This document shows positions 1 to 46,929 of a DNA stretch of 64,000 nucleotides, in pieces. Under the pieces are notes generated by a model, which searched no databases, was not told where the DNA came from, and saw only the letters and a list, made by a program, of their open reading frames with translations. The stretch spans positions 2,649,530 through 2,713,529 of the forward strand of contig CAWICY010000004.1 in NCBI GenBank assembly GCA_963834845.1, given 5' to 3'. Each line of letters opens with the position of its first letter. The stretch's first letter is position 1. A program made the position numbers and the translations under genes. This DNA comes from an uncultured Pseudomonadota bacterium (lineage in GTDB: Bacteria; Pseudomonadota; Gammaproteobacteria; Burkholderiales; SG8-39).

Positions 1-1
1 C

Positions 2-3555: not shown

Positions 3556-3597
3556 GCTGCTCAGATGATGGCGCAGGCGCCAATTACCCGGAGGACC

Positions 3598-9588: not shown

Positions 9589-9594
9589 GCCGCC

Positions 9595-25285: not shown

Positions 25286-25305
25286 CCAAAGCGCAGCAGC
25301 ATGGC

Positions 25306-28220: not shown

Positions 28221-28231
28221 GCGGCGGGGCG

Positions 28232-28249
28232 GCCGGACTGAAGTCCGGC
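28232..28249. terminator. Perfect hairpin GCCGGACT-GA-AGTCCGGC between the convergent TBDR and cytochrome b561 genes
   Basis: Read directly, 11 nt after the TBDR stop. There is no U-tract on either strand, so termination activity is uncertain. Confidence 0.4.
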
Positions 28250-28265
28250 TCGAAGGCATCGCGCC

Positions 28266-28622: not shown

Positions 28623-28650
28623 GCCGCTTACGGCTTTCCGCGAGCGGCGC

Positions 28651-28971
28651 TTATTTCGGCGGCGTCACGGTCACCTTGATGCTCGAATACCACTCCGAGA
28701 CATTGTCGATGTCGGCATCGGTGAGCGGCTTCGCGATGATGCTCATCTGGTCATTCCGGCGGCTGCCGGAGCGAAAGGCCCTGAGCTGCGCCACGAGGTA
28801 TTCCTTCTGCTGGCCACTGAGGTTGGCGGCGCCGGGCAGGACCGCGACGCCGTCCGCGCCGTGGCAGTTCTGGCACAGGGTCTGCACCATCGGCGGCGCC
28901 TCGCCCCCAGCTCGTGCCTGGACCGGCGACAGGAAGGCGGCGAGTACGAACGCCGTGCAAATGATACGCAT
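28651..28971 (-). CDS. Monohaem class I cytochrome c
   Basis: Signal MRIICTAFVLAAFLSPVQA. CQNCHG....LPGAANLSGQQKEYLVAQLRAFRSG.R.ND.MS (c4-half/c553-like). Confidence 0.85.
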   Translation of the reverse strand: MRIICTAFVLAAFLSPVQARAGGEAPPMVQTLCQNCHGADGVAVLPGAANLSGQQKEYLVAQLRAFRSGSRRNDQMSIIAKPLTDADIDNVSEWYSSIKVTVTPPK

Positions 28972-28980
28972 TTGTCTTCG

Positions 28981-29017
28981 GGGAGAAAAAGATGGGCCGG
29001 GCGCCGGGCCCGGCCCA
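28981..29017 (-). terminator. Rho-independent terminator after the sorbosone-dehydrogenase-like gene
   Basis: On the minus strand: UGGGCCGGGC-ccggc-GCCCGGCCCA (10-bp stem, 28993-29017) followed by UCUUUUUCUCCCC. Confidence 0.6.
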
Positions 29018-29032
29018 GTCTAGTCTGCCCCG

Positions 29033-30325
29033 CTACTTGCCTTGGTACGAGATGCGATAGATCGCGCCGGCCTTGTCGTCGGCTACCAGGATCGAGCCGT
29101 CGACGTACTGCCTCACGTCGACCGGCCGGCCGAGGTAGACGCCTTCCTCGTTCATCCAGCCTTCGGCGAACGGCTCGGTCTTCATCGCATTGCCCTTGTC
29201 ATCCAGGTAGGTGACCATCACCCTTGCGCCCCTGGGCTTGACCGCGTTCCACGAGCCGTGCTGCGCGTCGAAGATCGCGTTGTGGTACTTGGCCGGGAAC
29301 ATCTTGCCCGTGTAGACCATCATTCCCAGGTCCGCGGCGTGCGCGATCATTTCCACCTGGGGCTTGACGTATATCGCGGCGAGTTCCTTGGGAATCTGCT
29401 TGTCCTTGTACTCGTCGGTCCTCGTGCTGCCGCCGCCGTAGTACGGGAAGCCGTACCAGCCGCCCAGATGGAGCTTGCCGTTCGGGGCGGGCACCTTGTT
29501 CAGCTCGCCCGGAGGAATTTCGTCTCCCATGCCGTCGACCTGGTTGTCGGTGAACCACAGGCTCTTGTCCTTGGAATTGAAATCGAGCCCGGACGAATTG
29601 CGCATCCCGGTCAGGACCACTTCGCGTCCCGTGCCGTCACGGTTGAAGCGCACGATGCCGCCGATGCCCCACTTGCGGTACAGATCGACCTTTTCCGGCG
29701 GGGTCACGTTGAACGGCTGGCCGAGGGTGATGTAGATCTTGTTATCGGGGCCGATTACGCAGGCGCGCGCCGTGTGGTTGTACGATTCCTCTTCCGGCGG
29801 AATCAGCTCGCCCTGCTTGACGATCGCGACCGCAACCGTGTCGGGGCTTTCCATGAAGTATTCCGCCGCCGGGAACATCATCACGCGGTTGCGCTCGGCG
29901 ATGAACAGGAACCCGTCGGGCGAATAGCAGGCGCCGGCGGGAATGTCGAACTTGACGCTCGGGCTGAACTCCTCGACCGTGTCGGCGACGTTGTCCATGT
30001 CGCGATCGGTCACCGACCAGACGGTGGACTTGCGCGTGCCGACCCAGACGGTCGCCTTGTTGCGGCTCACCGCCATCTGCCGGGCATCGGGCACGATGGC
30101 AAACAGCTCGATCTTGAAGCCGTCGGGCAGCTTGATGCGCTGTAGCACCTTCTTAAGGTTATCCGCGTACTGGCCACCTTGCGGCACGCTCTTCCCGGGA
30201 CGGGAATCGGTGCGCTTGAACGCGCCCAGCTTGTCCAGATTTGCCTCGTCGTCCTTCGCGAAACCGGTGCTCGCGGAGAACGCAAATGCCAAGCCTACGG
30301 CAAGATATAAAGCCTTCCTCTTCAT
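29033..30325 (-). CDS. PQQ-dependent sugar/sorbosone dehydrogenase family beta-propeller (exported)
   Basis: MKRKALYLAVGLAFAFSASTGFA signal. ...LPDGFKIELFA....ARQMAV..., NSSGLDFN.KDKSLWFTDNQVDGMGDEIPPGELN, ...GSILVADDKAGAIYRISY: the sorbosone/glucose dehydrogenase-like pattern. Confidence 0.8.
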   Translation of the reverse strand: MKRKALYLAVGLAFAFSASTGFAKDDEANLDKLGAFKRTDSRPGKSVPQGGQYADNLKKVLQRIKLPDGFKIELFAIVPDARQMAVSRNKATVWVGTRKSTVWSVTDRDMDNVADTVEEFSPSVKFDIPAGACYSPDGFLFIAERNRVMMFPAAEYFMESPDTVAVAIVKQGELIPPEEESYNHTARACVIGPDNKIYITLGQPFNVTPPEKVDLYRKWGIGGIVRFNRDGTGREVVLTGMRNSSGLDFNSKDKSLWFTDNQVDGMGDEIPPGELNKVPAPNGKLHLGGWYGFPYYGGGSTRTDEYKDKQIPKELAAIYVKPQVEMIAHAADLGMMVYTGKMFPAKYHNAIFDAQHGSWNAVKPRGARVMVTYLDDKGNAMKTEPFAEGWMNEEGVYLGRPVDVRQYVDGSILVADDKAGAIYRISYQGK

Positions 30326-30379
30326 GATTCCTCTCCCTTTCCTTATGTGATCCGCTGTCGCCCCTGGGGCAACTCCTGC

Positions 30380-30399
30380 CTGGATCGGTGTCGATCCAG
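30380..30399. promoter_or_regulatory. Perfect inverted repeat CTGGATCG-gtgt-CGATCCAG upstream of the sorbosone-dehydrogenase-like gene
   Basis: Read directly, 55 nt upstream of start 30325 in the divergent intergenic region shared with the acyl-CoA dehydrogenase gene. Could be an operator or a 5'-UTR hairpin. Confidence 0.3.
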
Positions 30400-30574
30400 C
30401 GCCGTTCGTTCGATTGGGGCGAGCCATGCTCCTCCCCTTGTTGCGTGCCCGTCAAGCGACGGATCGAACGTTGCCGGCCCACTGTCGTCCCACCCGCGTC
30501 CAACTCGCTTCCCACTGCAACCGTTTGCCGCAGCGCGTTAGACTGAGCGCGGTTTATCCCGGTATCCGACTACG

Positions 30575-33722: not shown

Positions 33723-34787
33723 GTGGCGCAGGGCGTCGGGCGCTTCGTGCTGACGCCGCTCTTGCCCGGCATGCGCGCCGCGGCCGGCCTCGACGCGGCG
33801 CAGGCCGGGCTCATCGCCGGCACCAACTTCGCCGGCTACCTCGCGGGCAGCCTGTGGGTCGCGAGCCGCGCGCGCGAGGGGCGCATCGGCGCGGTGCCGC
33901 TCGGCCTGGCGCTGGTGCTCGGCGGCGCGGCGGCGATGGCGCTCGCGCCGGCGCTGCCGCTGTGGCTCGCGGCACGCTTCGTTTCCGGGCTGGGCGGCGC
34001 GCTGCTGTTCCTCGGCGCGCTCGACGCCTATGCGCGCGCCGCACCCTCGCCGGCGGACGTGCGGCCGCTCGCTGGCGTCGGGCTGGGCATCGCGGCGACC
34101 GGCCTCGCGGTGCTGCCCTGGCTGTCCGAGTGGCGCGCCGGCTGGCTCGCCGTGGCGCTGCTCGGCGCGCTCGCCGCGCCGGTGGTGCTGCGCCTGCCGC
34201 GCGGCGATGCGCATGGCCCGCGCGCGCACGAGCCGCCGCCCGAGCACAGCGGGCCGATGCTGCGCCTGGCGCTGTCGTACATCGGCTACGGCTTCGGTTT
34301 CGGCGCCGCTGGAACCTTCTTCGTCAACGTCGTCTCGGGCGGCGCGCTGCACGCTGCGGCGCTGGTGTGGGTGGTGGTCGGCCTGTGCGCGGCGGTGTCG
34401 ATCTGGGTCTGGGCCTGGGTGCGGCGGCGCGCGAGCGGCACGCGCGCGCTGTGCGCCGCAAACGTGCTGCATGCGTTCAGCATCTTTCTGGTGGCGCTCG
34501 ACCCGCGTCCGCTCACGGCGGCGATCGCGGGCGTGTTCTTCGGCGGCACGGTGGTCGCCATTACCGCGCTGGCGCTGCCGCTCGCGCGCGCGCTCGCGCC
34601 GCGCTCGCCGCGCCGCGCCGTGGCCTGGGTGACGGCGTTGTTCGGCGTCGGCAACATCGCGGGTCCGCCCGCGGTCGGCTGGCTCGGCGAGCGCCTCGGC
34701 TCGCTCGCGCACGGCCTGCTCGGCGCGGCGCTGGTTGCGGCGGCCGGCGCGTTGGTGCTGGTCCCCGACCTGCGCCGCGGCCGCTAA
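33723..34787 (+). CDS. YbfB/YjiJ-type MFS transporter
   Basis: GVGRFVLTPLLPGM.....LD.AQAGLIAGTNFAGYLAG is the family N-terminal motif. About 11-12 hydrophobic segments. The family normally has one more N-terminal helix, so the true start is probably upstream of GTG 33723 (see findings). Confidence 0.75.
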   Translation: MAQGVGRFVLTPLLPGMRAAAGLDAAQAGLIAGTNFAGYLAGSLWVASRAREGRIGAVPLGLALVLGGAAAMALAPALPLWLAARFVSGLGGALLFLGALDAYARAAPSPADVRPLAGVGLGIAATGLAVLPWLSEWRAGWLAVALLGALAAPVVLRLPRGDAHGPRAHEPPPEHSGPMLRLALSYIGYGFGFGAAGTFFVNVVSGGALHAAALVWVVVGLCAAVSIWVWAWVRRRASGTRALCAANVLHAFSIFLVALDPRPLTAAIAGVFFGGTVVAITALALPLARALAPRSPRRAVAWVTALFGVGNIAGPPAVGWLGERLGSLAHGLLGAALVAAAGALVLVPDLRRGR

Positions 34788-35098
34788 TCCACCTCGATCT
34801 CCATCTCCAGCAGCGCATAGCTGAGGCTCTTGCCGTGCGCGTCGAGCGCAAGCGAGGTGGTGACCCCGCCGCCGAGTGCGCCCTCGCACACGAACTGCAG
34901 CGCGCACAGGTTGGGCACTTCGTGGCGCACGACCTCGCCGCTGACGACCTGCGCAAGGTGCGCCTTGACGCGCGCCGCGGTGACCGCCTCGCGCAGCAGT
35001 GGGTAGTCCGCGTCGCGCAGCGCGATCAGCGACAGGATCGAGGTGTTGCCCTTGTCGCCGGCGCGGCAGTGCGCGAGCTCATACAAGCGTTTTTTCAC
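34784..35098 (-). CDS. Small protein resembling the DUF4387 / AtuA C-terminal module
   Basis: 104 aa (MKKRLYELAHCRAGDKGNTSILSLIAL...). Immediately downstream of, and overlapping by 20 nt, the DUF1446 gene, which is the usual partner arrangement. Confidence 0.55.
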   Translation of the reverse strand: MKKRLYELAHCRAGDKGNTSILSLIALRDADYPLLREAVTAARVKAHLAQVVSGEVVRHEVPNLCALQFVCEGALGGGVTTSLALDAHGKSLSYALLEMEIEVD

Positions 35099-36413
35099 CG
35101 CGCGTTTCCCTGATGGTGAGCTGCGGGCGCACCCGCTCGCGCTCGACGAGCGTCGAGACTACGCCGACCTGCTCGCGCACGTATTTGCGCGCGCCGCCGC
35201 CGCCGCCGGGACCGTTGGTCCACAGCGCCTCGACCTCCTCGCCAACCAGCTCGGCCTTCTCGCGCAGCGTCGCGCGAGCGGCGACGCGCAGCCGCACCTC
35301 GTAGGGCTCGCCCGCGACGCGCGAGGCCTTGCCGTGCAGCGAGTCGCAGCCGATGTAGTCGATGCGCAGCTCGCGGAACTCGCCCGCCAGACGCGCGCGC
35401 ACGGTCTCGCCGGCGAGCCGCGCGCGCGCCAGCGCGTTCGGCCCCGCGTAGCCCATCTCGCCTTCGCCGACGTAGCCCGCGTGGTAGCCGATGCTCGCCT
35501 TGAGCGTCGCGGGGCGCGCGCGGCCGCTCGCGCCGGAGACCGCGACCCGGTCGGCGCCCGCCTGCGCAATGCGCACCGTGGTGAAGTCGGCCACCACGTC
35601 GGGCGTCAGGTAGGCGCGCGGATCGGTGACCTCGTAGAGCAGCTGCTCCCTGACCGTCATCAGGTCGATGCGCCCGCCGGTGTCCTCGGGCTTGCCGAGC
35701 ACGAAGCGGCCGTCGGCGCCGATCTCCGCCCAGGGAAAGCCGAGCCGGGCGAAATCGGGCACGTCCTTCACGCCCGGGTCGGCGAAATAGCCGCCGGTGA
35801 CCTGCCCGGCGCACTCCAGCAGGTGGCCCATTGCCGTGCCGGCGGCCATGCGCCCGACGTCGGCCAGGTCCCAGCCGAGCTCGTGCGCCGCGGGCGCGAG
35901 GAACAGCGACGGATCGGCAACCCGTCCGGTGAGGATCACGTCGGCGCCGCTCGCCAGCGCCGGAAGCAGCGCGTCGGCACCGAGGTAAGCGTTGGCGGAA
36001 ACGAGCCACGGGTAGTCGCCGACCCTGCCGCCGGTCTCGAGGATGCGGTCCGCGGGGCGCAGCGCCTTCAGCACGTCGTCGCCGGTGACCGCCGCCACCT
36101 TGAGCGCGAGCCCGCGGCGCCGCGCGATGCCGAGCACCGCGTCGGCGGCGGCGACCGGATTGGCCGCGCCCATGTTGCTGATGACGCGAACGCCGCGGCG
36201 CTTGATCACCGGCAGCAGCAGCTCCATGCGCCGCGCGAGCAGCGGATCGTAGCCCTCGGCCGGGTCCTTGAGCCTGCGCAGCTGCGCCAGCGCGATGGTG
36301 CGCTCTGCGAGGCACTCGAGGCCGAGGTAGCGGATGTCGCCGCGCTCGGCGAGCACCACCGCCGGCTCGAGCCGGTCGCCCGCGAAGCCTGCGCCGGAGC
36401 CGATGCGAATCAT
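35079..36413 (-). CDS. AtuA-like acyclic-terpene-utilisation family protein (DUF1446)
   Basis: MIRIGSGAGFAGDRLEPAVVLAERGDIRYLGLECLAERTIALAQ...; ...ANAYLGA..L..AL..GADVILTGRVADPSL...HLLECAGQVTGGYFADP. The start overlaps the upstream ligase stop (ATGA-type). Confidence 0.75.
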   Translation of the reverse strand: MIRIGSGAGFAGDRLEPAVVLAERGDIRYLGLECLAERTIALAQLRRLKDPAEGYDPLLARRMELLLPVIKRRGVRVISNMGAANPVAAADAVLGIARRRGLALKVAAVTGDDVLKALRPADRILETGGRVGDYPWLVSANAYLGADALLPALASGADVILTGRVADPSLFLAPAAHELGWDLADVGRMAAGTAMGHLLECAGQVTGGYFADPGVKDVPDFARLGFPWAEIGADGRFVLGKPEDTGGRIDLMTVREQLLYEVTDPRAYLTPDVVADFTTVRIAQAGADRVAVSGASGRARPATLKASIGYHAGYVGEGEMGYAGPNALARARLAGETVRARLAGEFRELRIDYIGCDSLHGKASRVAGEPYEVRLRVAARATLREKAELVGEEVEALWTNGPGGGGGARKYVREQVGVVSTLVERERVRPQLTIRETRGEKTLV

Positions 36414-38068
36414 GTGAACTCCCTTTCCTGCAGCGCGCGCCACATCAGCTTGCCGGAGGCGGTGCGCGGCAGCGCCTCGGAGAACTCGATCAGTCGCGGC
36501 GCCTTGTAGGCCGCCATCTGGCCGCGCGCCCAGCCGAGGATATCGTCGCTCGTGACCTTGCCGGCGAACTCCTTCTTCAGCACCACCACGGCCTTCACCG
36601 TCTCGCCGCGGCGCGCATCGGGCGAGGCGATGATGCAGCACTCCTGGATCGCCGGGTGCCGGTACATCGCCGCCTCGACCTCGGCCGGCCAGACCTTGAA
36701 GCCCGCGGCGTTGATCATGCGCTTCAAGCGGTCGGAAATGTAGTAGTAGCCGTCCTCGTCCATGCGACCGAGATCGCCGGTGCGGAAGAACCGCTTGCCG
36801 CCGATCTCGGCCCAGGACTCGCGGTAGGCCTGCTCGTTGTTCCAGTAGCCGGTGAGCAGCTGCGGGCCGCGCACCACGATTTCGCCCTGCTCGCCGGGAT
36901 CGAGCACGCGCAAGGTCTCCGGATCGACGACGTGCGACTCGGTGTCGAAATAGGGAAAGCCCAGGCACTGCTTCTTCGGGCGCTCGGGCGGGTTCATGTG
37001 CGTCTGCGAGATGGTCTCGGTCATCCCGTAGCCCTCGAGGTAATGGATGCCGCAGGTGTCGTACAGCTTCTGCGCGATCGCCTCGGGCATGGCCGAGCCG
37101 CCGCCGAAGATGCAGCTGAGCGAGGAAACGTCGTGCTTGAGGGCCTGGGGATGCGACAGCAGGTCGACCACCATGGTCGGCACGTTCGCCCAGTGTGTGC
37201 AGCGGTGGCGCTCGATCAGGCGCGCCGCGAGGTGGGCGTCCCAGCGCGGCTGGATGACCGTCGTCGCGCCCGCATAGACCGACGCGTGCAGCGTGTGCAC
37301 GAAGCCCGTGACGTGGAACATCGGCGCAGTCGACAGCGCCACCGTGTCCTGGTGGATGTCTTCCCATAGCGCCGCGCCGGCGACGTTGAACATCACCGTC
37401 GCGTGCGTGTGCATGCAGCCCTTGGGCAGGCCGGTGCTGCCCGAGGTGTAGGGCATGACGCACAGCGTGCCGGGCTGCGCGCGCGAGGGCTCGGGCGCGT
37501 GGCCCATGGCGAGCGCGTGCGGCCACAACGTGACGCCGCGCGCGTCGATGCGCTCGCGCTTCGCCGCCACCGCCTCGGGAAGCGGCAGATCCGTGTCGAG
37601 CGACGCGTAGTCCGCGTACGCGGCGACCAGCACGCGCTCGAGCGGCGTGCGGCCGAGCAGGTCGCCGATTCTCGGCCAGGCTTCCTGGCCGACGATCGCG
37701 ACGCGCGCGCCGCTGTCCTCGAGGTAGTGCGCCAGCTCCCCGGCGACGCACATCGGGCTCACCGGCACCATCACCGCGTCGGCGCGCAGGATGGCGTAGC
37801 AGGCGAGCAGGAACTGCGGGCTGTTCTGCAGGTCGACCAGCACGCGCTCGCCCGGCCGCACGCCGCAGGCCTTCTGCAGGAAGCCCGCGAGCCGCAGCGT
37901 CTGCTCTTCGGCGTCGCGGTAGCGCAGCTCGGTGCCGAAGAACAGCGTCGCCGGCTTGTCGGGATAGCGCCGCGCCGAGACCTCGAGCAGCTCGTGCAGG
38001 GCCGAGCGCGGCGCCGTCAAGTGGTGACCGAAGCGCTTCGGCCAGAAGCGATAGTGGCGCGGGGTCAT
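36410..38068 (-). CDS. AMP-dependent acyl-CoA synthetase/ligase
   Basis: 552 aa. PYTSGSTGLPKGCMHTH, ...YGMTET..., TGDLGRMDEDGYYYISDRLKRMINAAGFKVWPAEVE, ...SGKLMWR. Confidence 0.92.
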   Translation of the reverse strand: MTPRHYRFWPKRFGHHLTAPRSALHELLEVSARRYPDKPATLFFGTELRYRDAEEQTLRLAGFLQKACGVRPGERVLVDLQNSPQFLLACYAILRADAVMVPVSPMCVAGELAHYLEDSGARVAIVGQEAWPRIGDLLGRTPLERVLVAAYADYASLDTDLPLPEAVAAKRERIDARGVTLWPHALAMGHAPEPSRAQPGTLCVMPYTSGSTGLPKGCMHTHATVMFNVAGAALWEDIHQDTVALSTAPMFHVTGFVHTLHASVYAGATTVIQPRWDAHLAARLIERHRCTHWANVPTMVVDLLSHPQALKHDVSSLSCIFGGGSAMPEAIAQKLYDTCGIHYLEGYGMTETISQTHMNPPERPKKQCLGFPYFDTESHVVDPETLRVLDPGEQGEIVVRGPQLLTGYWNNEQAYRESWAEIGGKRFFRTGDLGRMDEDGYYYISDRLKRMINAAGFKVWPAEVEAAMYRHPAIQECCIIASPDARRGETVKAVVVLKKEFAGKVTSDDILGWARGQMAAYKAPRLIEFSEALPRTASGKLMWRALQEREFT

Positions 38069-38106: not shown

Positions 38107-38451
38107 ATGATCGCGGTAATCTTCGAATTCACGCCCGCCCCGGGCCGCAAGCAGGAGTACCTCGACCTCGCCGCGGCGCTCAAGCCCGAGCTCGAGCGCG
38201 CCGACGGCTTCGTCTCGATCGAGCGCTTCGAGAGCATCACCGCGCCCGGGCACTTCGTGTCGATCTCGTACTGGCGCGACGAGCAGGCGGTGCGGCAATG
38301 GCGCAACCTCGAGCAGCACCGCGAGGCGCAGGCGAAGGGACGGAGCGGCATCTTCGCCGGTTATCGGCTGCGCGTGGCCTCGGTACTGCGCGACTACGGC
38401 CGCGGCGAGCGCGCCCAGGCGCCCGAGGACAGCGTCGCCGCGCACGGCTAG
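38107..38451 (+). CDS. Antibiotic-biosynthesis-monooxygenase (ABM) domain protein
   Basis: MIAVIFEFTPAPGRKQEYLDLAAAL.P.LE...GF.SIERFES.....HFVSISYWRDE.AV..WRN...H..AQ. Confidence 0.75.
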   Translation: MIAVIFEFTPAPGRKQEYLDLAAALKPELERADGFVSIERFESITAPGHFVSISYWRDEQAVRQWRNLEQHREAQAKGRSGIFAGYRLRVASVLRDYGRGERAQAPEDSVAAHG

Positions 38452-38814: not shown

Positions 38815-40248
38815 TCACACCATCTTGTCGGCTTCCGGCTCGCGGGCGGCGAGCGCCGCGAGGTCCGGCATCGGGATCGGCTGCTCCGACTCGAAGGCGC
38901 GCGCGGCGCGCAGCACCAGCGCATCGGCGTAGCGCGGCCCGACGATGTGCAGGCCCACCGGCAGGCCCGCGGCCGTCAGCCCGCAGGGAATCGAGGCCGC
39001 GGGCTGCTGCGTCAGGTTGAACGGGTAGGAGAAGGGCGTCCAGTCGGTCCAGCGCTTTTCCTTCATGACGTCGGCCACCTCCTTGCCCGCGTCGAAGGCG
39101 GCAAGCGGCAGGCTGGGCGTGAGCAGCAAGTCGTACTTCTCGTGGAACTGGTTCATGTGCACGCCGAGCGCGCCGCGCCGCTGCACCGCGTCGAGCAGCT
39201 CGAGCATGCCGATCTTCGCGCCCTGCTCGGCGACTTCGACCAGGCCGGGATCGACGAGCGCCTTCTGCTGCGGCGAGAAATTCTTCAGCAGGTAGGCGGC
39301 GCCCGTGAACCAGTGCGCGCGGAACACCGGCTCGGCATTTACGAAGCCCGGATCCACCGGCTCGACCAGCGCGCCAAGATCGACGAAGCGCATCGCCGCC
39401 TGCTCGACCAGCGCGGCCACTTCAGGGTCGACTTCGGCGTAGCCGAGGTTGGCCGAGTAGGCGATGCGCAGGCCGCGCACGCCCTCGTCCAGGCCGACGC
39501 GGTAATCGCGCGGCTCGTAGGGCAGGGCGAACCAGTCGCGCGTGTCGGGCCGCGACAGCACGTTTAGCAGCAGCGCGGCGTCGTGCACGCTGCGGGTCAT
39601 CGGCCCGACGTGCGCCACCGTGCCGAACGGCGACAGCGGCCAGGCGGGCACGCGACCGAACGACGGCTTGAGGCCGAACAGGCCGGTGAAGGCGCAGGGA
39701 ATGCGGATCGAGCCGCCGCCGTCGGTGCCGAGGGTCAGCGGCCCCATGCCCGCGGCGACCGCCGCCGCGGCGCCGCCCGAGGAGCCGCCGGGCGTCTTGG
39801 CGGGGTTCCACGGATTGCGCGTGATGCCGGTGAGCGAATTGTCCGTGACGCCCTTCCAGCCGAACTCCGGAGTGGTGGTCTTGCCGAGCAGCACCGCGCC
39901 CGCTTCGCGCAGCCGCGCCACGGCGGGCGCGTCGTCGTTCCACGGGCCCTTCGGATCGACGGTGCGCGAGCCGCGCAGCGTTGGCCAGCCCTTGGTGAGC
40001 AGCAGGTCCTTGATCGATGCGGGAACGCCGTCGAGCATGCCTTTCGGTTCGCCCTTCATCCAGCGCGCCTCCGATTCCTTGGCGACCGCGAGCGCGTCGG
40101 GCGCGAGGAAGCAGAAGCAGTTCAGCAGCGGGTTGAGGTCGTCGATCTGCTTGAGCACCGCGCGCGTCACCTCGACGGGCGAAATGCGCTTGCTGCGGTA
40201 CAGGTGGAGCAGCTCGACGGCGGACAGGGTGAGCAGGTCGGAGGACAT
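38815..40248 (-). CDS. Amidase (amidase-signature family)
   Basis: 477 aa. GVPASIKDL, ...GGSSGGAAAAVAAGMGPLTLGTDGGGSIRIP (AS signature). Confidence 0.92.
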   Translation of the reverse strand: MSSDLLTLSAVELLHLYRSKRISPVEVTRAVLKQIDDLNPLLNCFCFLAPDALAVAKESEARWMKGEPKGMLDGVPASIKDLLLTKGWPTLRGSRTVDPKGPWNDDAPAVARLREAGAVLLGKTTTPEFGWKGVTDNSLTGITRNPWNPAKTPGGSSGGAAAAVAAGMGPLTLGTDGGGSIRIPCAFTGLFGLKPSFGRVPAWPLSPFGTVAHVGPMTRSVHDAALLLNVLSRPDTRDWFALPYEPRDYRVGLDEGVRGLRIAYSANLGYAEVDPEVAALVEQAAMRFVDLGALVEPVDPGFVNAEPVFRAHWFTGAAYLLKNFSPQQKALVDPGLVEVAEQGAKIGMLELLDAVQRRGALGVHMNQFHEKYDLLLTPSLPLAAFDAGKEVADVMKEKRWTDWTPFSYPFNLTQQPAASIPCGLTAAGLPVGLHIVGPRYADALVLRAARAFESEQPIPMPDLAALAAREPEADKMV

Positions 40249-40260
40249 GGACTCGCGATC

Positions 40261-41154
40261 TCAGGTTCCGGAATACCGAAATCGGCTGGCCAGCGCCTCG
40301 GCGGTGCCGAACAGCCATGCTCCGCCGAGCGCCGGCGGCATGCGTGCAGAATACAGGGTCCCGCGCGGCTGCGCGACTGCGCCGGCACGCGCGCAGCGCC
40401 CGAGAAGCTCCCCGGGGTCGCGGCAGGCGAGCGCGTAGCCGGCGAGCGCGGGCGCCGCCGGGGCGCCGCCGAGCAGCGCGACGAGATCCTCCCTGCGGCC
40501 GACCAGCAGATCGCCGCGCGCGGTCGGCAGCCTCACGAACGCTCCGGCCGGGCGCGGCGCGAGCCCCGCGAAGCGCGCGTAGCGCGCCGCCACCGCCACC
40601 GGGTCGTCGGCGACGACGAACGCCGCGGCGAGCGCGCTCACGCCGTTGTCGTGCCGCAGCCAGCGCGGCTGCCACAGGCATTCGGGCGTCTTCTGCTCGA
40701 CGAACTGCACGCGTCCCTCGGGCATCGTTTCCGGCGGCACGCGCACCACGCCGAAGCGCGCGCGGCGCGTTGCGCCGTCGGGCATCTCGACATCGCGCGC
40801 GAGATCGACGCCGGGCAGCGGGGCGAAGCCGTGGCGCGCGAGGCGCTCGTGCTCGGCCGCGGCGTTAGGAGTGCCCAGGGCGAGGATGTGCACGCCCGCG
40901 TAGCGCGCCATCGCCGCGCGCGTGCGGCGCGCGTGCGGCGTGTCGGCGACCGGCGCGAGCAGCTCGATGTAGCCCGCGTCGAGCATGACGCAGCGGTTGG
41001 CGGTGCCGGTGGGGCCCTCGGCCGTCGCCTGCGCCGAGTACGGCGTCACGACGAAGCCGAGCGTCTGCAGGGCGGCGGCCGCGGCGTCCAGGTCCGGCAC
41101 GAAGTGCGCGACGTGGTCCAGGACCAGGGATCCGGCGATGGCGGTTTGCGGCAC
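40261..41154 (-). CDS. Glyoxalase-like / VOC domain protein
   Basis: LVLDHVAHFVPDLDAAAAALQTLGFVVTP... and ...GYIELL... resemble the glyoxalase-like domain family. GTG 41154 is chosen as the start; the longer ORF to 41259 would overlap the divergent NHase gene. Confidence 0.6.
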   Translation of the reverse strand: MPQTAIAGSLVLDHVAHFVPDLDAAAAALQTLGFVVTPYSAQATAEGPTGTANRCVMLDAGYIELLAPVADTPHARRTRAAMARYAGVHILALGTPNAAAEHERLARHGFAPLPGVDLARDVEMPDGATRRARFGVVRVPPETMPEGRVQFVEQKTPECLWQPRWLRHDNGVSALAAAFVVADDPVAVAARYARFAGLAPRPAGAFVRLPTARGDLLVGRREDLVALLGGAPAAPALAGYALACRDPGELLGRCARAGAVAQPRGTLYSARMPPALGGAWLFGTAEALASRFRYSGT

Positions 41155-41193
41155 GGTGTTTTTTCCGGACGTTGCGGGTGCAATAATAGCCGC

Positions 41194-41511
41194 ATGATCG
41201 AGCGCGGACACCACGACATGGGCGGATTGCCGGGCGGGCCGGTGGAGCGGAGCGAGCACGATTATGCCGATTGGGAGCGGCGCGTCGACGCGCTGATGGT
41301 CCTGCTGTCCGGCGTCAAGGGCGTGCGGAAGCTGCTCACGGTGGACGAGCTGCGCAAGAACATCGAGGCACTTGGACCCGAGGCCTACGACCGGATGAGC
41401 TACTACGAGCGCTGGGTGACCTCGATCACGCAGACCATGCTCCAGCGCGGCGTCATCACCACGGAGGAGCTGGCGCGCAAGATGCGGGAGGTCGAGCGGC
41501 GTGGCGATTGA
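41194..41511 (+). CDS. Nitrile hydratase beta subunit, N-terminal half (separate ORF)
   Basis: MIERGHHDMGGLPGGPVERSEHDYADWERRVDAL....G......VDELR..IE.L.P..Y..MSYYERWV.SI...L..GVIT.EEL matches the N-terminal half of NHase beta (HDxGG start motif). Confidence 0.85.
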   Translation: MIERGHHDMGGLPGGPVERSEHDYADWERRVDALMVLLSGVKGVRKLLTVDELRKNIEALGPEAYDRMSYYERWVTSITQTMLQRGVITTEELARKMREVERRGD

Positions 41512-41791
41512 GGCCCGCTTCAGGCCGGGCGACCGCGTGCGGGTGATGCAGGCCTACCCGCTCGGCCACGTCCGCACGCCTTACTACATCCGCGGCCACA
41601 GCGGCGTGATCGAGCGCGTGTGCGGGTCGTTCCCCAACCCCGAGGAGCTGGCGCAGATGCGCAGCGGTCTGCCCGCGCTGCCGCTGTACCGCGTGCGCTT
41701 CCGGCAAACGGAGGTGTGGCCAGACTACCGCGGCGAGCCAGACGACGTGGTCGAGATCGAGATTTTCCAGCACTGGCTGGAGACTGGATGA
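41501..41791 (+). CDS. Nitrile hydratase beta subunit, C-terminal half (separate ORF)
   Basis: The GTG start overlaps the previous ORF by 11 nt in another frame. [10 protein letters not shown]....[27 protein letters not shown].....G....PLYRVRF....VW......[12 protein letters not shown] matches the NHase beta C-terminal SH3-like half. Confidence 0.85.
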
Positions 41792-42381
41792 GCGAGCTCG
41801 GCAAGTACCAGCCGCTGACCTATTTCCAGCTCATGGAGGTCAGCCTGCGCGAGCTGCTGGTCGAGAAGGGCGTAGTGACCGAGCAGGCGATCGAGGCGGC
41901 CGTCGAGGATATGCGCTCGCGCGGGCCGGAGCGCGGCGCGAGGGTGGTGGCGCGCGCCTGGAGCGACCCGGGATACAAGCGGCGTCTGCTCGAGGACGGC
42001 ACCGCGGCCTGCGAGGAGCTGGGCCTGGACGTTCCGGCGCTGCGCCTGGTGGTGATGGAAAACACGCCCGCGGTGCACAACCTGATCGTGTGCACGCTGT
42101 GCTCGTGCTATCCGCGGATGCTCCTAGGCCTGCCGCCCGACTGGTACAAGTCGCGCAACTACCGCAGCCGCGTGGTGCGCGAGCCGCGCGCCGTGCTCGC
42201 CGAGTTCGGCACCACGATCCCGGACCATGTCGCGATCCGCGTGCACGACTCGACCGCCGACATGCGCTATATGGTGCTGCCGATGCGCCCCGCGGGCACC
42301 GAGGGCTGGGACGAGGAGCGCCTCGCGGCGCTGGTCACGCGCGACTCGATGATCGGCGTGGCGCTGCCGAAGGCGCCTTGA
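41788..42381 (+). CDS. nthA: Nitrile hydratase alpha subunit, cobalt-type (VCTLCSCY)
   Basis: ATGA overlap with beta-C. Metal-binding claw [35 protein letters not shown]; Thr and Tyr at the positions typical of Co-type enzymes. Confidence 0.92.
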
Positions 42382-43106
42382 GAGACAAGGCCCCCAAGCC
42401 GCTCGGCGTGCTGCCGCTCGGCGACGCCGCGGCGTACGTCGAATTCTCCGAGACGCTCGACCTCGCGATCAACGATGCGGTGCAGCGCCTCGCGGCCGCA
42501 GTGCGCGAGCGCGCCGTGCCGTGGATGCAGGACGTGGTCCCCGCCCTCGGCGGCCTCGCGCTGCACTTCGACGTCGATCACCCCGCGCTGCCCGATGCGC
42601 CGTTACAGGCGGCCGCCGAGCTGGTCGACGAATGCCTGAAGGCGGGCTTGCCCGCATCCGAGAAGGTAGGCCGCACGGTGGACGTGCCGGTGTGCTACGA
42701 CACCGAGCTCGCTCTCGACCTGGAGGAGATCGCCGAGCGCGTGAAGCTCGCGCCCGAGGAAGTGGCGCGCCGCCACGCCGCGCGCGAGTACCGCGTGCTG
42801 ATGATGGGGTTTTCTCCCGGGCTGCCATACCTCGGCGGCCTCGACCCGAGCATCGCGGTGCCGCGCCGCGCCACGCCGCGCGCCACGGTGCCGGCGGGGT
42901 CGATCGCCATCGCCAACCTGCAGGCGGTGGTCTACCCCTACGCCATACCGGGCGGCTGGAACGTGATCGGGCGCACGCCGCTCACGGTGTTCGACGCGCG
43001 GCGCGCGGCGCCGAGCCTGTTCGCGCCGGGCGACCGCGTGCGCTTCAGGCCGGTGACGCGCACCGAATTCGAGCGGCTGCGCGAAGCGCGGCGCGGCGCG
43101 CCATGA
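42378..43106 (+). CDS. pxpB: 5-oxoprolinase subunit B family (PxpB / KipI / allophanate hydrolase subunit 1)
   Basis: The TTG start overlaps the nthA stop (TTGA). ...[11 protein letters not shown]...; [19 protein letters not shown]....[21 protein letters not shown]...PGGWN.IGRTP. Confidence 0.85.
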
Positions 43107-44113
43107 GCGTCAAGGTCCTGCGGCCGGGCCTGCTTACCACCGTGCAGGACCGCGGGCGCTACGGGCTGCAGCACCTGGGCATCGTTCCCTGCGGTGCGAT
43201 GGACGTCACGGCGCACACGCTTGCCAATGCGCTGGTCGGCAACGAGCGCGACGAGGCGACGCTCGAGATTACTGTGCTCGGCCCCGAGCTCGAGTTCGAG
43301 CGTACCGCGCTGGTCGCGCTGTGCGGCGCCGAGTTCGACGCGCGCGCGGACGGCCGCGCGCTGCCGCCCAACCGTCCGGTGCTGCTCGAGGCGGGCGCAC
43401 GCCTCACGGCGCGGCGCGCGCTGCGCGGCGCGCGCGCCTACCTGGCGGTCGCCGGGGGCCTGGCACTCGAGGAGGTACTCGGCAGCCGCAGCACCTACCT
43501 TCCGGCGCGCTTCGGCGGGCTCGACGGCCGCGCGCTGCGCGCAGGGGACGTCGTGCCGCTGGCGCGCGACGCTTCCAGGGTCGCGGCGGCGCGCTACGCG
43601 AAGCTCGCGCGCGGCGCCGTCGTGCGCGACGGGCTGCGCACGGTGCGCTGGTCGGCGCCGTCGCTTACGCTGCCCGACCGCGAACCGATCGTCGTGCACG
43701 CCATGGAGGGCCGTCATTTCGCCAGGTTCCAGGCCACCTCGCAGCGCGTGCTGTTCGACGCCGTGTGGCGCGTCTCGCCGGATTCCAACCGCATGGGCTA
43801 CCGGCTCGCGGGGCCGACGCTCACGCTGATCGAGGCCGGTGAGATACTATCGGAGCCAACCTGCCTCGGCACGGTGCAGGTGCCCCCGAACGGCGTGCCG
43901 ATCGCGCTGCTGGCCGACCACCAGACGACCGGCGGCTATCCGAAGGTCGCCGAGATCGCCGTGGCGGACGTGCCGCGGCTGGCGCAGCTCGCGCCGGGCG
44001 GAACGTTGCATTTCGCGCGCTCGACGCTCGAGGACGCGCTGGGTTTGCGGCGTGCCGCGCGCCATCGCCTGCAGGCGGCGTTGCGCGCGGTGGCCTGGGA
44101 GTACGGGAAATGA
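43103..44113 (+). CDS. pxpC: 5-oxoprolinase subunit C family (PxpC / KipA / allophanate hydrolase subunit 2)
   Basis: [34 protein letters not shown]..., ...SNRMGYRL.GP.L......ILSEPTCLGTVQVPPNG.PI.LLADHQTTGGYPK. Confidence 0.88.
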   Translation: MSVKVLRPGLLTTVQDRGRYGLQHLGIVPCGAMDVTAHTLANALVGNERDEATLEITVLGPELEFERTALVALCGAEFDARADGRALPPNRPVLLEAGARLTARRALRGARAYLAVAGGLALEEVLGSRSTYLPARFGGLDGRALRAGDVVPLARDASRVAAARYAKLARGAVVRDGLRTVRWSAPSLTLPDREPIVVHAMEGRHFARFQATSQRVLFDAVWRVSPDSNRMGYRLAGPTLTLIEAGEILSEPTCLGTVQVPPNGVPIALLADHQTTGGYPKVAEIAVADVPRLAQLAPGGTLHFARSTLEDALGLRRAARHRLQAALRAVAWEYGK

Positions 44114-44865
44114 AACGCATCGATCTCAACTGCGACATGGGCGAAAGCTACGGCGCTTGGAAGATGGGCGCCGACGCCGACATCATGCCGCTCATCACTT
44201 CGGCCAACATCGCCTGCGGCTTTCACGCGGGCGACCCGGCGACCATCAGGAAGACTGTGCAGCTGGCCGTCGAGCACGGCGTCGCGGTCGGCGCGCACCC
44301 TTCGCTGCCCGACCTGCAGGGATTCGGCCGACGGGTCATGAAGATCACGCCGCAGGACATGTACGATCTGGTGCTGTACCAGGCCGGCGCGCTGCAGGCC
44401 TTCGCGCGCGCCGCGGGCGGCAGACTGCACCACGTCAAGTGCCACGGCGCGCTGTACAACATGTCGACCGACGACGAGGCGCTGTCCGATGCGATGGCGC
44501 GCGCCGTGCAGGACCTTGGCGGCGAGGTCATCCTGTACGCGCTGTCGAACAGCCGCATGATGGAGGCGGCTAAGGCGCGCGGCGTCCGGGTCGCCGGCGA
44601 AGCCTTCGCCGACCGCGGCTACTCGGACGATGGCACGCTCGCGCCGCGCGGCAAGCCCGGCGGCATGATCGAGCAAGAGGACAAGGCGGTGGCGCAGGCG
44701 CTCGCGATGATCGAGCAGGGCTACGTCACCAGCCTGTCGGGCAAGCGCGTGCCGGTGGCACCGGACACGCTGTGCCTGCACGGCGACCAGCCCGGAGCGG
44801 TCGCCTTCGCCAATGCATTGCGCAAGGCATTTGCCGATCGCGGCATCGCGCTCGGAGCACCCTGA
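44110..44865 (+). CDS. pxpA: 5-oxoprolinase subunit A (LamB/YcsF family)
   Basis: MKRIDLNCDMGESYGAWKMG.D..IMPLITSANIACGFHAGDP..I...V.LA..HGVAVGAHPS.PDL.GFGRR. Confidence 0.92.
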   Translation: MKRIDLNCDMGESYGAWKMGADADIMPLITSANIACGFHAGDPATIRKTVQLAVEHGVAVGAHPSLPDLQGFGRRVMKITPQDMYDLVLYQAGALQAFARAAGGRLHHVKCHGALYNMSTDDEALSDAMARAVQDLGGEVILYALSNSRMMEAAKARGVRVAGEAFADRGYSDDGTLAPRGKPGGMIEQEDKAVAQALAMIEQGYVTSLSGKRVPVAPDTLCLHGDQPGAVAFANALRKAFADRGIALGAP

Positions 44866-44882
44866 GAAAGGAACCGGAATCG

Positions 44883-46007
44883 ATGAGCAGCAAGCTATTC
44901 ACTACCATCCAGCTCGGCGGCGTCACGCTGCCCAACCGCATCGTGGTGTCGCCGATGTGCCAGTACTCCGCCGACGACGGCTCGATGACCGACTGGCACA
45001 TGATGCACCTCGGCAGCCTCGCGGCCTCGGGCGCGGGCCTGCTGATGATCGAGGCCACGGGCGTGACGCGTGAGGGCCGCATCTCGCACGGCTGCACCGG
45101 GCTTTACAGCGACAACAACGAGGCGGCGATGAAGCACGTGGTCGACGCCTGCCGGCGCGTCACCAGGAGCCCGATCGGCGTGCAGGTTGGCCACGCCGGC
45201 CGCAAGGGCTCGGCGCAGGTGCCGTGGCTGGGAGGCAAGGCGCTGTCGGCCGCCGAGTCGCCCTGGCAGACGGTCGCGCCTTCCGCGCTCGCGTTCGGCG
45301 AGGGCTGGCACACGCCGCGCGAGCTCTCCGCCGCCGACATCGCCGGCCTGGCGCAGGCTTTCGCCGCGGCCGCGCAGCGCGCGCAGCGCATCGGCCTGGA
45401 CGTGCTCGAGATGCACTCGGCGCACGGCTACCTGCTGCACGAGTTCCTGTCGCCGCTTTCGAACACCCGCAGCGATCGGTACGGCGGCAGCCTCGAGAAC
45501 CGCATGCGCGCGCCGCTCGAGATGGCGCAGGCGCTGCGCGCGGCCTGGCCGAAGGAGCGCTGCCTCGGCGCGCGCATCACGGCGAGCGACTGGACCGAGG
45601 GGGGTTTCGAAGCGGCCGACGCGGTGACCTACGCCAGGGAGCTGGCGCGCATCGGCTTCGACTACGTGTGCGTATCGAGCGGCGGGGCGGTGCCGCAGCA
45701 GCGCATCAAGGTGGTGCCCGGCTATCAGGTGGCGTTCGCCGAGAAGGTGAAGAAGGGCGCGCCCATCGCGGTGCGCGCGGTCGGCATGATCGCCGACCCA
45801 GAGCAGGCCGAGGAGATCGTCGCGAGCGGCAAGGCCGACATGGTGGCGCTGGCGCGCGGCTTCCTGGACGACCCTCGCTGGGTATGGCACGCCGCGGAGA
45901 AGTTCGGCGTCAAGATCGACTACCCCCCGCAATACGCGAGGAGCCATCCGGACCTGTGGCCGGGCGCGCGCCTGGCGCGCCCGCTGCCCGCCGCCGCAAC
46001 TGCATGA
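44883..46007 (+). CDS. NADH:flavin oxidoreductase (Old Yellow Enzyme family)
   Basis: LFTTIQLGGVTLPNRIVVSPMCQYS, ...HAGRK..., LEMHSAHGYLLHEFLSPLSN.R.D.YGGSLENR.R. Confidence 0.92.
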   Translation: MSSKLFTTIQLGGVTLPNRIVVSPMCQYSADDGSMTDWHMMHLGSLAASGAGLLMIEATGVTREGRISHGCTGLYSDNNEAAMKHVVDACRRVTRSPIGVQVGHAGRKGSAQVPWLGGKALSAAESPWQTVAPSALAFGEGWHTPRELSAADIAGLAQAFAAAAQRAQRIGLDVLEMHSAHGYLLHEFLSPLSNTRSDRYGGSLENRMRAPLEMAQALRAAWPKERCLGARITASDWTEGGFEAADAVTYARELARIGFDYVCVSSGGAVPQQRIKVVPGYQVAFAEKVKKGAPIAVRAVGMIADPEQAEEIVASGKADMVALARGFLDDPRWVWHAAEKFGVKIDYPPQYARSHPDLWPGARLARPLPAAATA

Positions 46008-46909
46008 AGCCGGCTGTCGCGCTCGTCGGCCTCGGCCGCATGGGCGCGCCGATGGCACGCCGCCTGCTCGCGGCGCGCCACCGGCTGCGCGTCTACGACG
46101 CGAGCCCGCGCGCACGCGCGGCCTTCGCCGCGGAGAAAGGCGCCACCGTGTGCGCGTCGCCGGCCGACGCCGCACGCGGCGCCCGTGTGCTGATCACCAT
46201 GCTGCCCGACGGTGCCGCGGTGCGCGCGGCGCTGCTCGGCAGGGACGGCGCGGCGCCGGCGCTGGCGCGCGGCGCGGTGGTGGTCGACATGAGCTCGTCG
46301 GACCCGGACACCACGCGGCGCCTGGGCCGCGCGCTCGCGGCGCGCGGCGTGGCGTTTCTCGACGCGCCGGTCTCGGGGCGCGTGGTCGGCGCGCGCGAGG
46401 GCACGCTCACCATCATGGTCGGAGGCGCGCCCGCGGCGCTCGCGCGCGTGCGGCCGGTGCTCAGGCACCTCGGCACGCGCATCTTTCACTGCGGCCCCGC
46501 GGGCGCCGGGCACGCGGTCAAGTCTCTCAGCAATGCGATCGCCGCGGCCGGCACGGTCGCCGCGTTCGAGGCGCTCATCGTCGGGCGCGCGCTCGGGCTC
46601 GACGCGAGGCTGATCAACGAGGTGTGGAATGCCTCGGCAGGACGCAACACCACCACCGAGCAGAAGATTCCGACACAGGTGCTGACGCGCGCCTTCGCAT
46701 CGGGCTTCGCGCTGTCGCTGATGGCGAAGGATATCGGCATCGCGGCGCGGCTCGCGCGCAGGACCGGCGTCGACGCGCCGCTGCTGCGCAGGAGCCTCGC
46801 GCTGTGGCGTGCGGCCGAGCGGCGTCTCGGGCGCGGCGCCGATCACACCGAGATGTATCTCTACCTCGCGAACAATTCAGCGAAGCGCAAGCGTCGGCGC
46901 GTAAGCTGA
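46004..46909 (+). CDS. NAD(P)-dependent 3-hydroxyisobutyrate/6-phosphogluconate dehydrogenase-like oxidoreductase
   Basis: VALVGLGRMGAPMARRL (Rossmann GxGxxG), ...FLDAPVSG......G.LTIMVGG..., ...G.G...K..NN. ATGA overlap with the OYE gene. Confidence 0.85.
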   Translation: MKPAVALVGLGRMGAPMARRLLAARHRLRVYDASPRARAAFAAEKGATVCASPADAARGARVLITMLPDGAAVRAALLGRDGAAPALARGAVVVDMSSSDPDTTRRLGRALAARGVAFLDAPVSGRVVGAREGTLTIMVGGAPAALARVRPVLRHLGTRIFHCGPAGAGHAVKSLSNAIAAAGTVAAFEALIVGRALGLDARLINEVWNASAGRNTTTEQKIPTQVLTRAFASGFALSLMAKDIGIAARLARRTGVDAPLLRRSLALWRAAERRLGRGADHTEMYLYLANNSAKRKRRRVS

Positions 46910-46929
46910 GCGACAGCTTTCTTTTTTTT
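46904..46929 (+). terminator. Weak stem (AGCTG-agcga-CAGCT) followed by TTTCTTTTTTTTG; probable intrinsic terminator of the NHase-pxp operon
   Basis: Read directly. The T-tract is the longest in the window. The stem is only 5 bp and includes the stop codon. Confidence 0.5.

Follow-up and report, generated by a model that had tools for sequence, protein, structure and literature searches.

A conserved operon links a split-β cobalt-type nitrile hydratase to PxpBCA-like proteins and an OYE flavoprotein in uncultured Burkholderiales

In contig CAWICY010000004.1, from an uncultured bacterium of the Burkholderiales, we analysed a stretch of 64,000 nucleotides (hereafter the window) in which eight consecutive genes encode a three-subunit nitrile hydratase, the three proteins of a PxpBCA-like module, an OYE flavoprotein and a HIBADH-like dehydrogenase. 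The link between the hydratase, PxpBCA and OYE genes is conserved and co-inherited among related loci, and a single shared pathway is therefore a fair inference. The operon is apparently undescribed and probably catabolic. The original prediction, made from the DNA letters alone, knew of no described pathway with this gene set, and our literature search found none either: in the searchable literature, no paper names both “nitrile hydratase” and “5-oxoprolinase”, and nothing relevant was found on nitrile hydratases with OYE enzymes or on Pxp proteins with lactams. We propose, with confidence evenly balanced, that the operon serves to use a nitrile-bearing compound as a carbon or nitrogen source, Pxp acting on the amide that the hydratase yields or on a ring derived from that amide.

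Organisation of the operon

Coordinates and junctions of the operon genes were taken from the list of open reading frames (ORFs) and the sequence, and families were assigned by Pfam and NCBIfam profile searches (Table 1). All eight ORFs match a named Pfam family far over the cut-off, and their order, families and every junction are as originally predicted. The genes for the two β halves, βN and βC, overlap by 11 nt. ATGA junctions connect βC to α, pxpB to pxpC, pxpC to pxpA and OYE to the HIBADH-like gene, and a 17-nt spacer lies between pxpA and OYE. The α/pxpB junction is TTGA, the TTG start of pxpB overlapping the α stop codon, and this is kept in the closest related genome, L081. Across the related loci (groups 1 and 2, defined below), the estimated junction has a median of −11 nt for βN/βC and of −4 nt for βC/α, α/pxpB, pxpB/pxpC, pxpC/pxpA and pxpA/OYE, the latter indicating that the tight coupling is not an accident of a single genome.

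The operon does end at the only long T-tract of the window, as had been claimed: TTTTTTTT (T8, 46922-46929) occurs once in 64 kb and is preceded by a weak hairpin (46903-46919) of six pairs, three of them G-C. At the other end, 39 nt (41155-41193) separate the βN start (41194) from the inferred start of a divergent VOC gene (GTG at 41154, minus strand), so that both promoters must fall within adjoining coding sequence. A single sigma-70-like match was seen around these starts, on the minus strand inside βN (41288-41261). No riboswitch or other RNA element was found in the window or in seven related loci.

Table 1. Positions in the window of the operon genes and of the neighbouring genes discussed in the text.
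Feature	Positions	Strand	Details
βN (nitrile hydratase β, N-terminal half)	41194-41511	+	105 aa, ATG start; PF21006, E 2.5e-21
βC (nitrile hydratase β, C-terminal SH3-like half)	41501-41791	+	96 aa, GTG start; PF02211, E 6.8e-24
α (nitrile hydratase, cobalt type)	41788-42381	+	197 aa; PF02979, E 4.6e-84
pxpB-like (KipI / CT_C_D)	42378-43106	+	242 aa, TTG start; PF02682, E 5e-64
pxpC-like (KipA / CT_A_B)	43103-44113	+	336 aa; PF02626, E 8e-88
pxpA-like (LamB/YcsF)	44110-44865	+	251 aa; PF03746, E 2e-102
OYE flavoprotein, YqjM/XenA (thermophilic-like) class	44883-46007	+	374 aa; PF00724, E 2e-62
HIBADH-like β-hydroxyacid dehydrogenase	46004-46909	+	301 aa; PF03446 and PF14833
Terminator-like hairpin, then T8 tract	46903-46929	+	hairpin/T-run inspection
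Two-domain VOC protein (Glyoxalase_3)	40261-41154	-	about 297 aa, divergent from operon; PF13468, E 1e-30
Amidase-signature amidase	38815-40248	-	477 aa, downstream of VOC gene; PF01425, E 2e-104
ABM monooxygenase	38107-38451	+	profile family assignment
Acyl-CoA synthetase	36410-38068	-	profile family assignment
AtuA	35079-36413	-	4-nt overlap with acyl-CoA synthetase
AtuA-ferredoxin-like ORF	34784-35098	-	20-nt overlap with AtuA

Conservation of gene order among related loci

The window proteins were compared with the best 80 of at least 511 loci carrying relatives of α, and with five more loci (85). Loci were assigned by a neighbour-joining tree of α to three groups, which agree with gene context. 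Group 1 (L001-L039 without the six loci of group 2) consists of Burkholderiales/Betaproteobacteria metagenome-assembled genomes (MAGs) with α 70-88 % identical to that of the window. In group 2 (L021, L023, L029, L032, L036, L037), OYE lies directly 3’ of α and there are no pxp genes. Group 3 (L040-L080) has the three hydratase genes alone, with no conserved neighbours. The order βN-βC-α-pxpB-pxpC-pxpA-OYE is kept in 17 of the 23 loci of group 1 (α ≥70 %) with at least 4.3 kb of downstream sequence, and pxpBCA and OYE occur in none of 31 loci of the stand-alone clade, group 3. One locus inside group 1, L014, has lost the pxp genes. The closest genome, L081, shares the chromosomal neighbourhood of the window, with α 87 % identical. 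Identity to the window genes co-varies across loci, with Spearman coefficients of 0.54-0.81 for α versus the Pxp and OYE genes. The placing of nthA by pxpB, pxpC and pxpA, for which the original prediction had proposed a synteny search, thus recurs in relatives and is not unique to this genome.

The same data bear on whether the genes are co-transcribed but functionally unrelated, that is, detoxification or housekeeping functions (electrophile reduction by OYE, a glyoxalase-like protein, 5-oxoprolinase and nitrile hydration) kept together by inheritance in one order. Part of the synteny follows from common descent by itself, since the Pxp-linked loci all belong to one lineage, that of the Burkholderiales/Betaproteobacteria MAGs; it would also be in keeping with such a collection that the genes 3’ of OYE vary widely and that, in a few loci, unrelated genes (for a sigma factor, a ferritin-like protein and a cyclase) separate pxpA from OYE. 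However, the order persists at identities as low as 70 % in α and 44-60 % in VOC, PxpB and PxpC, where the surrounding genes are wholly different, the 4-nt overlaps are upheld family-wide, and the pxpBCA block is gained or lost exactly between α and OYE. Moreover, the sampled PxpA relatives at 78-88 % identity are found in this context only. We regard a chance collection of unrelated functions as unlikely, and one shared pathway is the reading that we follow below.

In the OYE-only clade (L021, L023, L029, L032, L036), the flanks carry genes for a Rieske oxygenase that weakly matches the LigXa C-terminal domain, a GMC oxidoreductase, two PhyH-type dioxygenases, a PanB-like transferase and a NitT/TauT-type ABC importer. 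These neighbours may hint that the substrate is a related one.

A cobalt-type nitrile hydratase with a split β subunit

The metal site of nitrile hydratase α subunits has the motif C(T/S)LCSC, in which Thr, with a Tyr, marks the cobalt type, and the β subunit gives two conserved arginines (β Arg52 and β Arg157) and the Tyr68/Trp72 pocket. In classical cobalt-type enzymes, β is a single polypeptide of about 220-230 amino acids and an adjacent gene encodes an activator (P14K, NhlE). The window α passes the nitrile hydratase model TIGR01323 (272.8 bits, cut-off 249.85), carries VCTLCSCY from residue 101 (Cys cluster CTLCSC at 102) and finds its best PDB matches in the cobalt-type enzymes 4ob1 and 3qxe (E 1e-72 to 1e-66). 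βN aligns to residues 3-95 of the β subunit of the Pseudomonas putida cobalt-type enzyme (3qxe_B) and retains the equivalents of β Arg52 (in DELR) and of Tyr68 and Trp72 (in YYERW); βC aligns to residues 128-217 and retains the motif GHxRxPxYxRG. Judged by these alignments, the two halves jointly supply all active-site contributions of a β subunit, minus the linker. At the positions equivalent to β Leu48 and Phe51, βN has Val and Leu, residues that would leave slightly more room in the pocket. With the nitrile hydratase cut-off passed and the metal motif and β arginines intact, the hydratase looks functional.

On the β model TIGR03888 (cut-off 152), βN and βC score 68 and 72 bits, respectively. 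An assembly frameshift was excluded as the cause of the split, which is seen in all 68 scorable loci. A 199-amino acid “β fusion” in L082, a related long-read MAG, is a gene-caller artefact arising from a frameshift inside βN. No ORF between 34.7 and 47.6 kb reaches the activator model TIGR03889 (cut-off 46), the top score being that of βN, at 18 bits. That βN is itself an activator or accessory protein was excluded by this score, set against 68 bits on the β model, and by the retained catalytic Arg. We take the enzyme to be a heterotrimeric cobalt-type nitrile hydratase that apparently needs no activator.

Two further roles were weighed for these proteins: the enzyme might not hydrate nitriles in vivo, acting for example on thiocyanate, or Pxp might be an ATP-dependent maturation factor that replaces the activator. 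The split β and the order βN-βC-α are those of thiocyanate hydrolase, of which chains B and A in 2dd4 are matched. Yet α reaches only 234.3 bits on the thiocyanate hydrolase γ model TIGR03887 (cut-off 291.45), on which ground this identity was rejected, its match to thiocyanate hydrolase in the PDB is much weaker (E 3e-53 versus 1e-72 for the cobalt-type nitrile hydratases), and there is no sulfur-oxidation context. A maturation role would suit the lack of an activator gene in the scanned neighbourhood and the metal binding of PxpA-family proteins, but sister clades have the same split enzyme without Pxp genes, which excludes Pxp as a factor required for maturation. Both variants seem to us very improbable, and we keep to nitrile hydration.

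The family is large. Relatives of α numbered at least 511 among the first 600 pattern matches listed in species-representative genomes, and a protein search for relatives of the hydratase gave at least 8000 candidates. A search with βN gave 389 clusters (50 % identity) at E ≤1e-10, the best 150 of which are mostly short stand-alone proteins. By exact-sequence look-up, no sequence identical to the window α is on record. Two tandem βN-like genes precede βC in L013, L025, L027, L033, L039, L061 and L084 (in L084 at 4742-5056 and 5049-5360), and a 201-amino acid βN-βN fusion exists as well (P0361). The β model recognises both copies (60-65 bits) and the accessory-protein model neither; the extra copy might serve as a built-in chaperone. 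In the stand-alone clade L040-L080 (e.g. L045, 9947-10573), α bears a short His-rich N-terminal extension (MSETHDHPH...), absent from the window α, which could be a metal-binding tail in an activator-less enzyme. Cultured bacteria have such enzymes too: a plasmid of Rhizobium sp. WYJ-E13 (L086, 5643-8767) carries βC, nthA and βN followed by genes for an aquaporin and the cobalt transporters CbtB/CbtA, and a plasmid of Planktothrix agardhii (L087, 5341-6594) has a split-β hydratase as well; the β halves of both are annotated only as “SH3-like domain-containing protein”.

The Pxp module

To our knowledge, PxpABC has a single established reaction, and we know of no Pxp-type enzyme shown to act on a lactam besides 5-oxoproline. 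The Pxp proteins of the window are full length, and the three families are encoded in adjacent genes with 4-nt overlaps. PxpB passes the equivalog TIGR00370 (167 bits, cut-off 145.6). PxpC passes TIGR00724 (272 bits, cut-off 230) and falls under the cut-off of the equivalog NF045499 (268 versus 500 bits). PxpA passes the subfamily model NF003814 (351 bits, cut-off 226) and does not reach the equivalog models; its PDB matches are 1v6t (E 6e-81) and Escherichia coli YbgL, 1xw8 (E 1e-70), and it aligns end to end with YbgL and PH0986, all motifs seen in PH0986 being retained.

Much of this would suit a genuine 5-oxoprolinase, recruited because the pathway yields 5-oxoproline, from which Pxp recovers glutamate. 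The nitrile could then be, for example, a γ-glutamyl conjugate, or γ-cyano-α-aminobutyrate converted to glutamine and on to pyroglutamate. The models passed by PxpB and PxpA and the intact motifs are what such an enzyme should show, the order B-C-A equals that of E. coli ybgJKL, and in L082 a glutamate-cysteine ligase gene directly follows OYE. It is harder to reconcile with the PxpC score and with the distance of the clade from other PxpA genes described below; it leaves the OYE, VOC and thiamine diphosphate (ThDP) proteins without a role, and the cluster has no conserved enzyme of γ-glutamyl processing. We consider recruitment for 5-oxoproline possible but rather doubtful.

The PxpA proteins linked to the hydratase form a distinct clade. 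All four sampled homologues at 78-88 % identity (P0197, P0165, P0159, L081) lie in the hydratase operon, and in the fetched loci every window-like PxpA found by tblastn (73-88 % identity) is directly downstream of α and pxpBC. By comparison, the best of 729 plasmid and chromid PxpA genes annotated as 5-oxoprolinase, a set that takes in 119 Ralstonia records and Cupriavidus plasmids, is 54 % identical to the window PxpA. Together, these results argue against a hitch-hiking housekeeping copy, a possibility that the original prediction had raised and that is now disfavoured. The module appears instead to be an old, separate and co-inherited lineage and not a recent copy of a local housekeeping gene.

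We then considered other amide-cleaving enzymes in the 16 fully flanked loci, i.e. those with at least 5 kb upstream and at least 4.3 kb downstream. Pxp is present in 12 of these, and a homologue of the amidase-signature amidase in three, all of which also have Pxp, leaving Pxp as the sole recognised amide-cleaving candidate in most clusters. Replacement of Pxp and this amidase by one another was not seen, the Pxp-less clade lacking such an amidase too.

The OYE flavoprotein and the dehydrogenase

The OYE flavoprotein is closest in the PDB to 5ocs (E 1e-108) and matches YqjM, 1z41, at E 3e-76. Its catalytic residues are intact (CQYS at residue 26, HSAHGYLLHEF at residue 178); class III OYEs are FMN-binding TIM barrels with, in YqjM numbering, Cys26, the His164/His167 pair and the proton donor Tyr169. 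The gene follows pxpA, or directly follows α, in 24 loci.

The last gene of the operon is different. The dehydrogenase scores 211.8 bits on TIGR01692, under the cut-off of 291.6, and matches sulfolactaldehyde and tartronate-semialdehyde reductases just as well; these scores support assignment at the level of the β-hydroxyacid dehydrogenase family only. No HIBADH-like homologue adjoins OYE in any of the 85 loci, and in L081 the operon stops after OYE, with just a 61-amino acid ORF at the corresponding position. Conserved membership of the pathway was excluded on these grounds, and the gene is a lineage-specific addition to the operon. Thus, of the single pathway proposed originally, the part that joins hydratase, PxpBCA and OYE stands, the dehydrogenase falls outside the conserved set, and alcohol or aldehyde oxidation is not a conserved step.

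A VOC protein, a ThDP enzyme and an importer as partners

None of the 16 fully flanked loci lacks the VOC gene divergent from the operon. The AlphaFold2 model of its product (predicted local distance difference test score, pLDDT, 94.8) was shown by Foldseek to have a two-domain VOC fold, with 4-hydroxyphenylpyruvate dioxygenase and hydroxymandelate synthase matched at E ~1e-12. By sequence there is no PDB match and no NCBIfam family, and the predicted structure is that of a generic two-domain VOC protein. The N-terminal domain holds all four invariant residues (H14, E64, H89 and E146). Their spacing is reminiscent of the metal-binding residues in glyoxalase I and methylmalonyl-CoA epimerase, and suggests proton-transfer chemistry rather than that of a dioxygenase.

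In 21 loci, an acetolactate synthase-like ThDP enzyme of about 564 amino acids is encoded directly upstream of βN, as the first gene of the operon (70-100 % identical to the query, itself from one of the 21 loci). In L083 this gene overlaps βN by 4 nt, so that there too the coupled operon has eight genes, with a different eighth gene. Among solved structures, BbmA (8x3x) is the nearest relative of the ThDP enzyme, with acetolactate synthases and glyoxylate carboligase next. The gene was looked for elsewhere in the window and not found; the subclade of the window has lost it. On the metagenome contig of P0159, a gene for an FmdA/AmdA-type amidase lies between the ThDP gene and βN.

A Liv-type ABC importer is encoded 3’ of the VOC gene, on the same strand, in 6-7 loci, and other loci have TctC-type carboxylate binders. 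The binding protein of the importer matches PDB entries 4ey3, 4eyg and 4eyk (E 4e-112, about half of the aligned residues identical), 4f06 (E 3e-95) and 4evs (E 2e-93). These entries are Rhodopseudomonas palustris proteins that reportedly bind 4-hydroxybenzoate, vanillate and protocatechuate; the aromatic-acid binding proteins of this organism were reportedly described by Michalska et al. in 2012. The match hints at an aromatic carboxylate.

Comparison with known systems

The cobalt-type nitrile hydratases of Pseudonocardia thermophila JCM 3095 and Pseudomonas putida NRRL-18668 resemble the window enzyme in having a full-length homologous α with VCTLCSCY and in the two catalytic arginines and Tyr/Trp pocket residues kept by the β halves. 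Unlike theirs, the window β consists of two polypeptides (105 and 96 amino acids) and misses the linker, at about residues 96-127 of 3qxe_B; the operon is without an activator gene, α has Arg in place of Trp after the CSCYP motif, and the pocket has Val/Leu in place of β Leu48/Phe51. Thiocyanate hydrolase of Thiobacillus thioparus (β, α and γ) likewise has three subunits with the equivalent of nitrile hydratase β split, in the same order of N-half, C-half and α homologue, and chains A, B and C of 2dd4 are all matched. The window halves lack its N-terminal extensions (105 and 96 versus 157 and 126 amino acids), the window α stays at 234 versus 291 bits on the γ model, and no P15K-type activator is encoded in the scanned neighbourhood. 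The toyocamycin nitrile hydratase ToyJKL of Streptomyces rimosus, for which the PDB has no structure, also consists of three small subunits, similar in size to those here, one resembling α and two derived from β, and is reportedly active without a dedicated activator. In toyJKL, however, α comes first, and the genes belong to a deazapurine biosynthetic cluster, of which no genes are found here.

The prokaryotic ATP-dependent 5-oxoprolinase PxpABC comprises E. coli YbgJKL, Bacillus subtilis KipI/KipA/YcsF and the products of Corynebacterium glutamicum pxpTABC (PMC13274462). The window module has the same three protein families, in the order B-C-A. It differs in its place between a nitrile hydratase and OYE, in having neither a pxpT/NRAMP-type transporter nor a PxpR regulator, in the PxpC score under the equivalog cut-off and in the divergence of PxpA from the plasmid PxpAs. 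In the aldoxime-nitrile clusters of Pseudomonas chlororaphis B23 and Rhodococcus (oxd, nitrile hydratase, amidase, acyl-CoA synthetase), an amidase and a synthetase are near the hydratase, as in the window. Here, however, both are on the opposite strand and conserved in the closest relatives only, and the Pxp, OYE, VOC and ThDP genes are foreign to that pathway. No aldoxime dehydratase domain was found among the ORFs scanned at 28.6-49.4 kb, the rest of the window being partly scanned. Finally, caprolactamase CapAB, of the hydantoinase/oxoprolinase (HyuA/HyuB) type, opens a stable lactam with ATP in a catabolic pathway (PMC8453981). The logic is that proposed here for Pxp, although the protein family is unrelated.

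Other genes of the window

On the VOC side, the subclade of the window has gained the amidase, the ABM protein and an acyl-CoA synthetase-AtuA unit. The amidase passes NF004815 (722 bits, cut-off 506), and homologues are found in L002, L004, L006, L009, L015, L030, L034, L035, L081 and L082; in L082 (coordinates 9405-10004 and 4438-5600 for the frameshift and the insertion sequence), an insertion sequence (HTH_Tnp_1 and rve) lies between the amidase and VOC genes. The synthetase and ABM genes are conserved in the closest loci only (L002, L004, L009, L081). The synthetase, AtuA and the AtuA-ferredoxin-like ORF form a second coupled unit (34784-38068, minus strand), AtuA being a protein of acyclic terpene utilisation to which no function is assigned.

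Two segments, 22000-30500 and 1-6000, have a lower G+C content, of 0.61-0.65 versus about 0.71. The former holds genes for a pyrroloquinoline quinone (PQQ) dehydrogenase (23477-25285), a β-propeller/lactonase-like protein (21655-22668), a cytochrome c (28651-28971) and a GSDH-like protein (29033-30427), and the latter a 451-amino acid ORF (4663-6018) with no Pfam match. Between 7291 and 15851 lies a separate catabolic set comprising an HMGL-like lyase, an intradiol dioxygenase (8274-9017), a MarR regulator, a family III CoA-transferase and an enoyl-CoA hydratase, which would fit an organism with a wide range of aromatic or acyl-CoA catabolism.

Discussion

The genes can be read as a pathway, the reaction order, catabolic direction and substrate class of which we infer. 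Firstly, the three-subunit cobalt nitrile hydratase would hydrate the nitrile to a carboxamide. Secondly, PxpBCA would process, at the cost of ATP, either this amide or a lactam or imide derived from it. Most plausibly, the amide would cyclise onto a neighbouring carbonyl or carboxyl group to give a stable five-membered lactam or imide, and opening of the ring by PxpBCA would release ammonium or an amino acid. Ordinary amidases are poor on such five-membered rings. Thirdly, the YqjM-type OYE could reduce an activated C=C bond of the carbon skeleton, or supply reduced flavin. In a fourth step, the VOC protein, presumably metal-dependent and isomerase- or epimerase-like, would act on the carbon skeleton in the same pathway, and in most relatives the ThDP enzyme would act on a 2-oxo acid or acyloin. 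Lastly, in the lineage of the window only, the amidase, the CoA-ligase and the β-hydroxyacid dehydrogenase may contribute peripheral steps. The divergent VOC gene, the nearby amidase (two genes upstream), the ThDP gene lost here and the Pxp-free sister clade with OYE after α were all absent from the original prediction, as was the finding that the split β is family-wide and not a local oddity. The clues from importer, VOC, ThDP, OYE and hydratase pocket together fit, weakly, a carboxylated and perhaps aromatic nitrile.

Several points weigh against the use of a nitrile by this route. Both PxpB, on an equivalog model, and PxpA, on a subfamily model, score above the NCBIfam cut-offs for 5-oxoprolinase, and with the PH0986 motifs retained Pxp could still act on 5-oxoproline. 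The group 2 clade and L014 have the hydratase and OYE without Pxp, so the core chemistry can do without it. The roles given to OYE and the ThDP enzyme are guesses of a generic kind, the hint of an aromatic acid stems from a transporter found in a minority of loci, and the carriers are uncultured MAGs.

More tentatively still, the Pxp proteins described here may be the first of their type with a substrate other than 5-oxoproline, acting as an ATP-driven opener of a lactam or imide and forming, with the ThDP, VOC and OYE proteins, a new route from nitrile to ammonium in uncultured soil Burkholderiales. In known nitrile pathways the hydratase is paired with an ordinary amidase, and the conserved Pxp, OYE, ThDP and VOC genes around the present hydratase point to a substrate or intermediate outside those pathways. 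A second Pxp substrate, if true, would broaden the role of PxpABC, a family present in most bacteria. The split-β hydratases in turn make up a large, unstudied and apparently activator-less family of practical interest for biocatalysis. All carriers of the complete operon are MAGs from soil or sediment, so that the pathway may have a part in how nitriles derived from plants or cyanide are turned over in soil.

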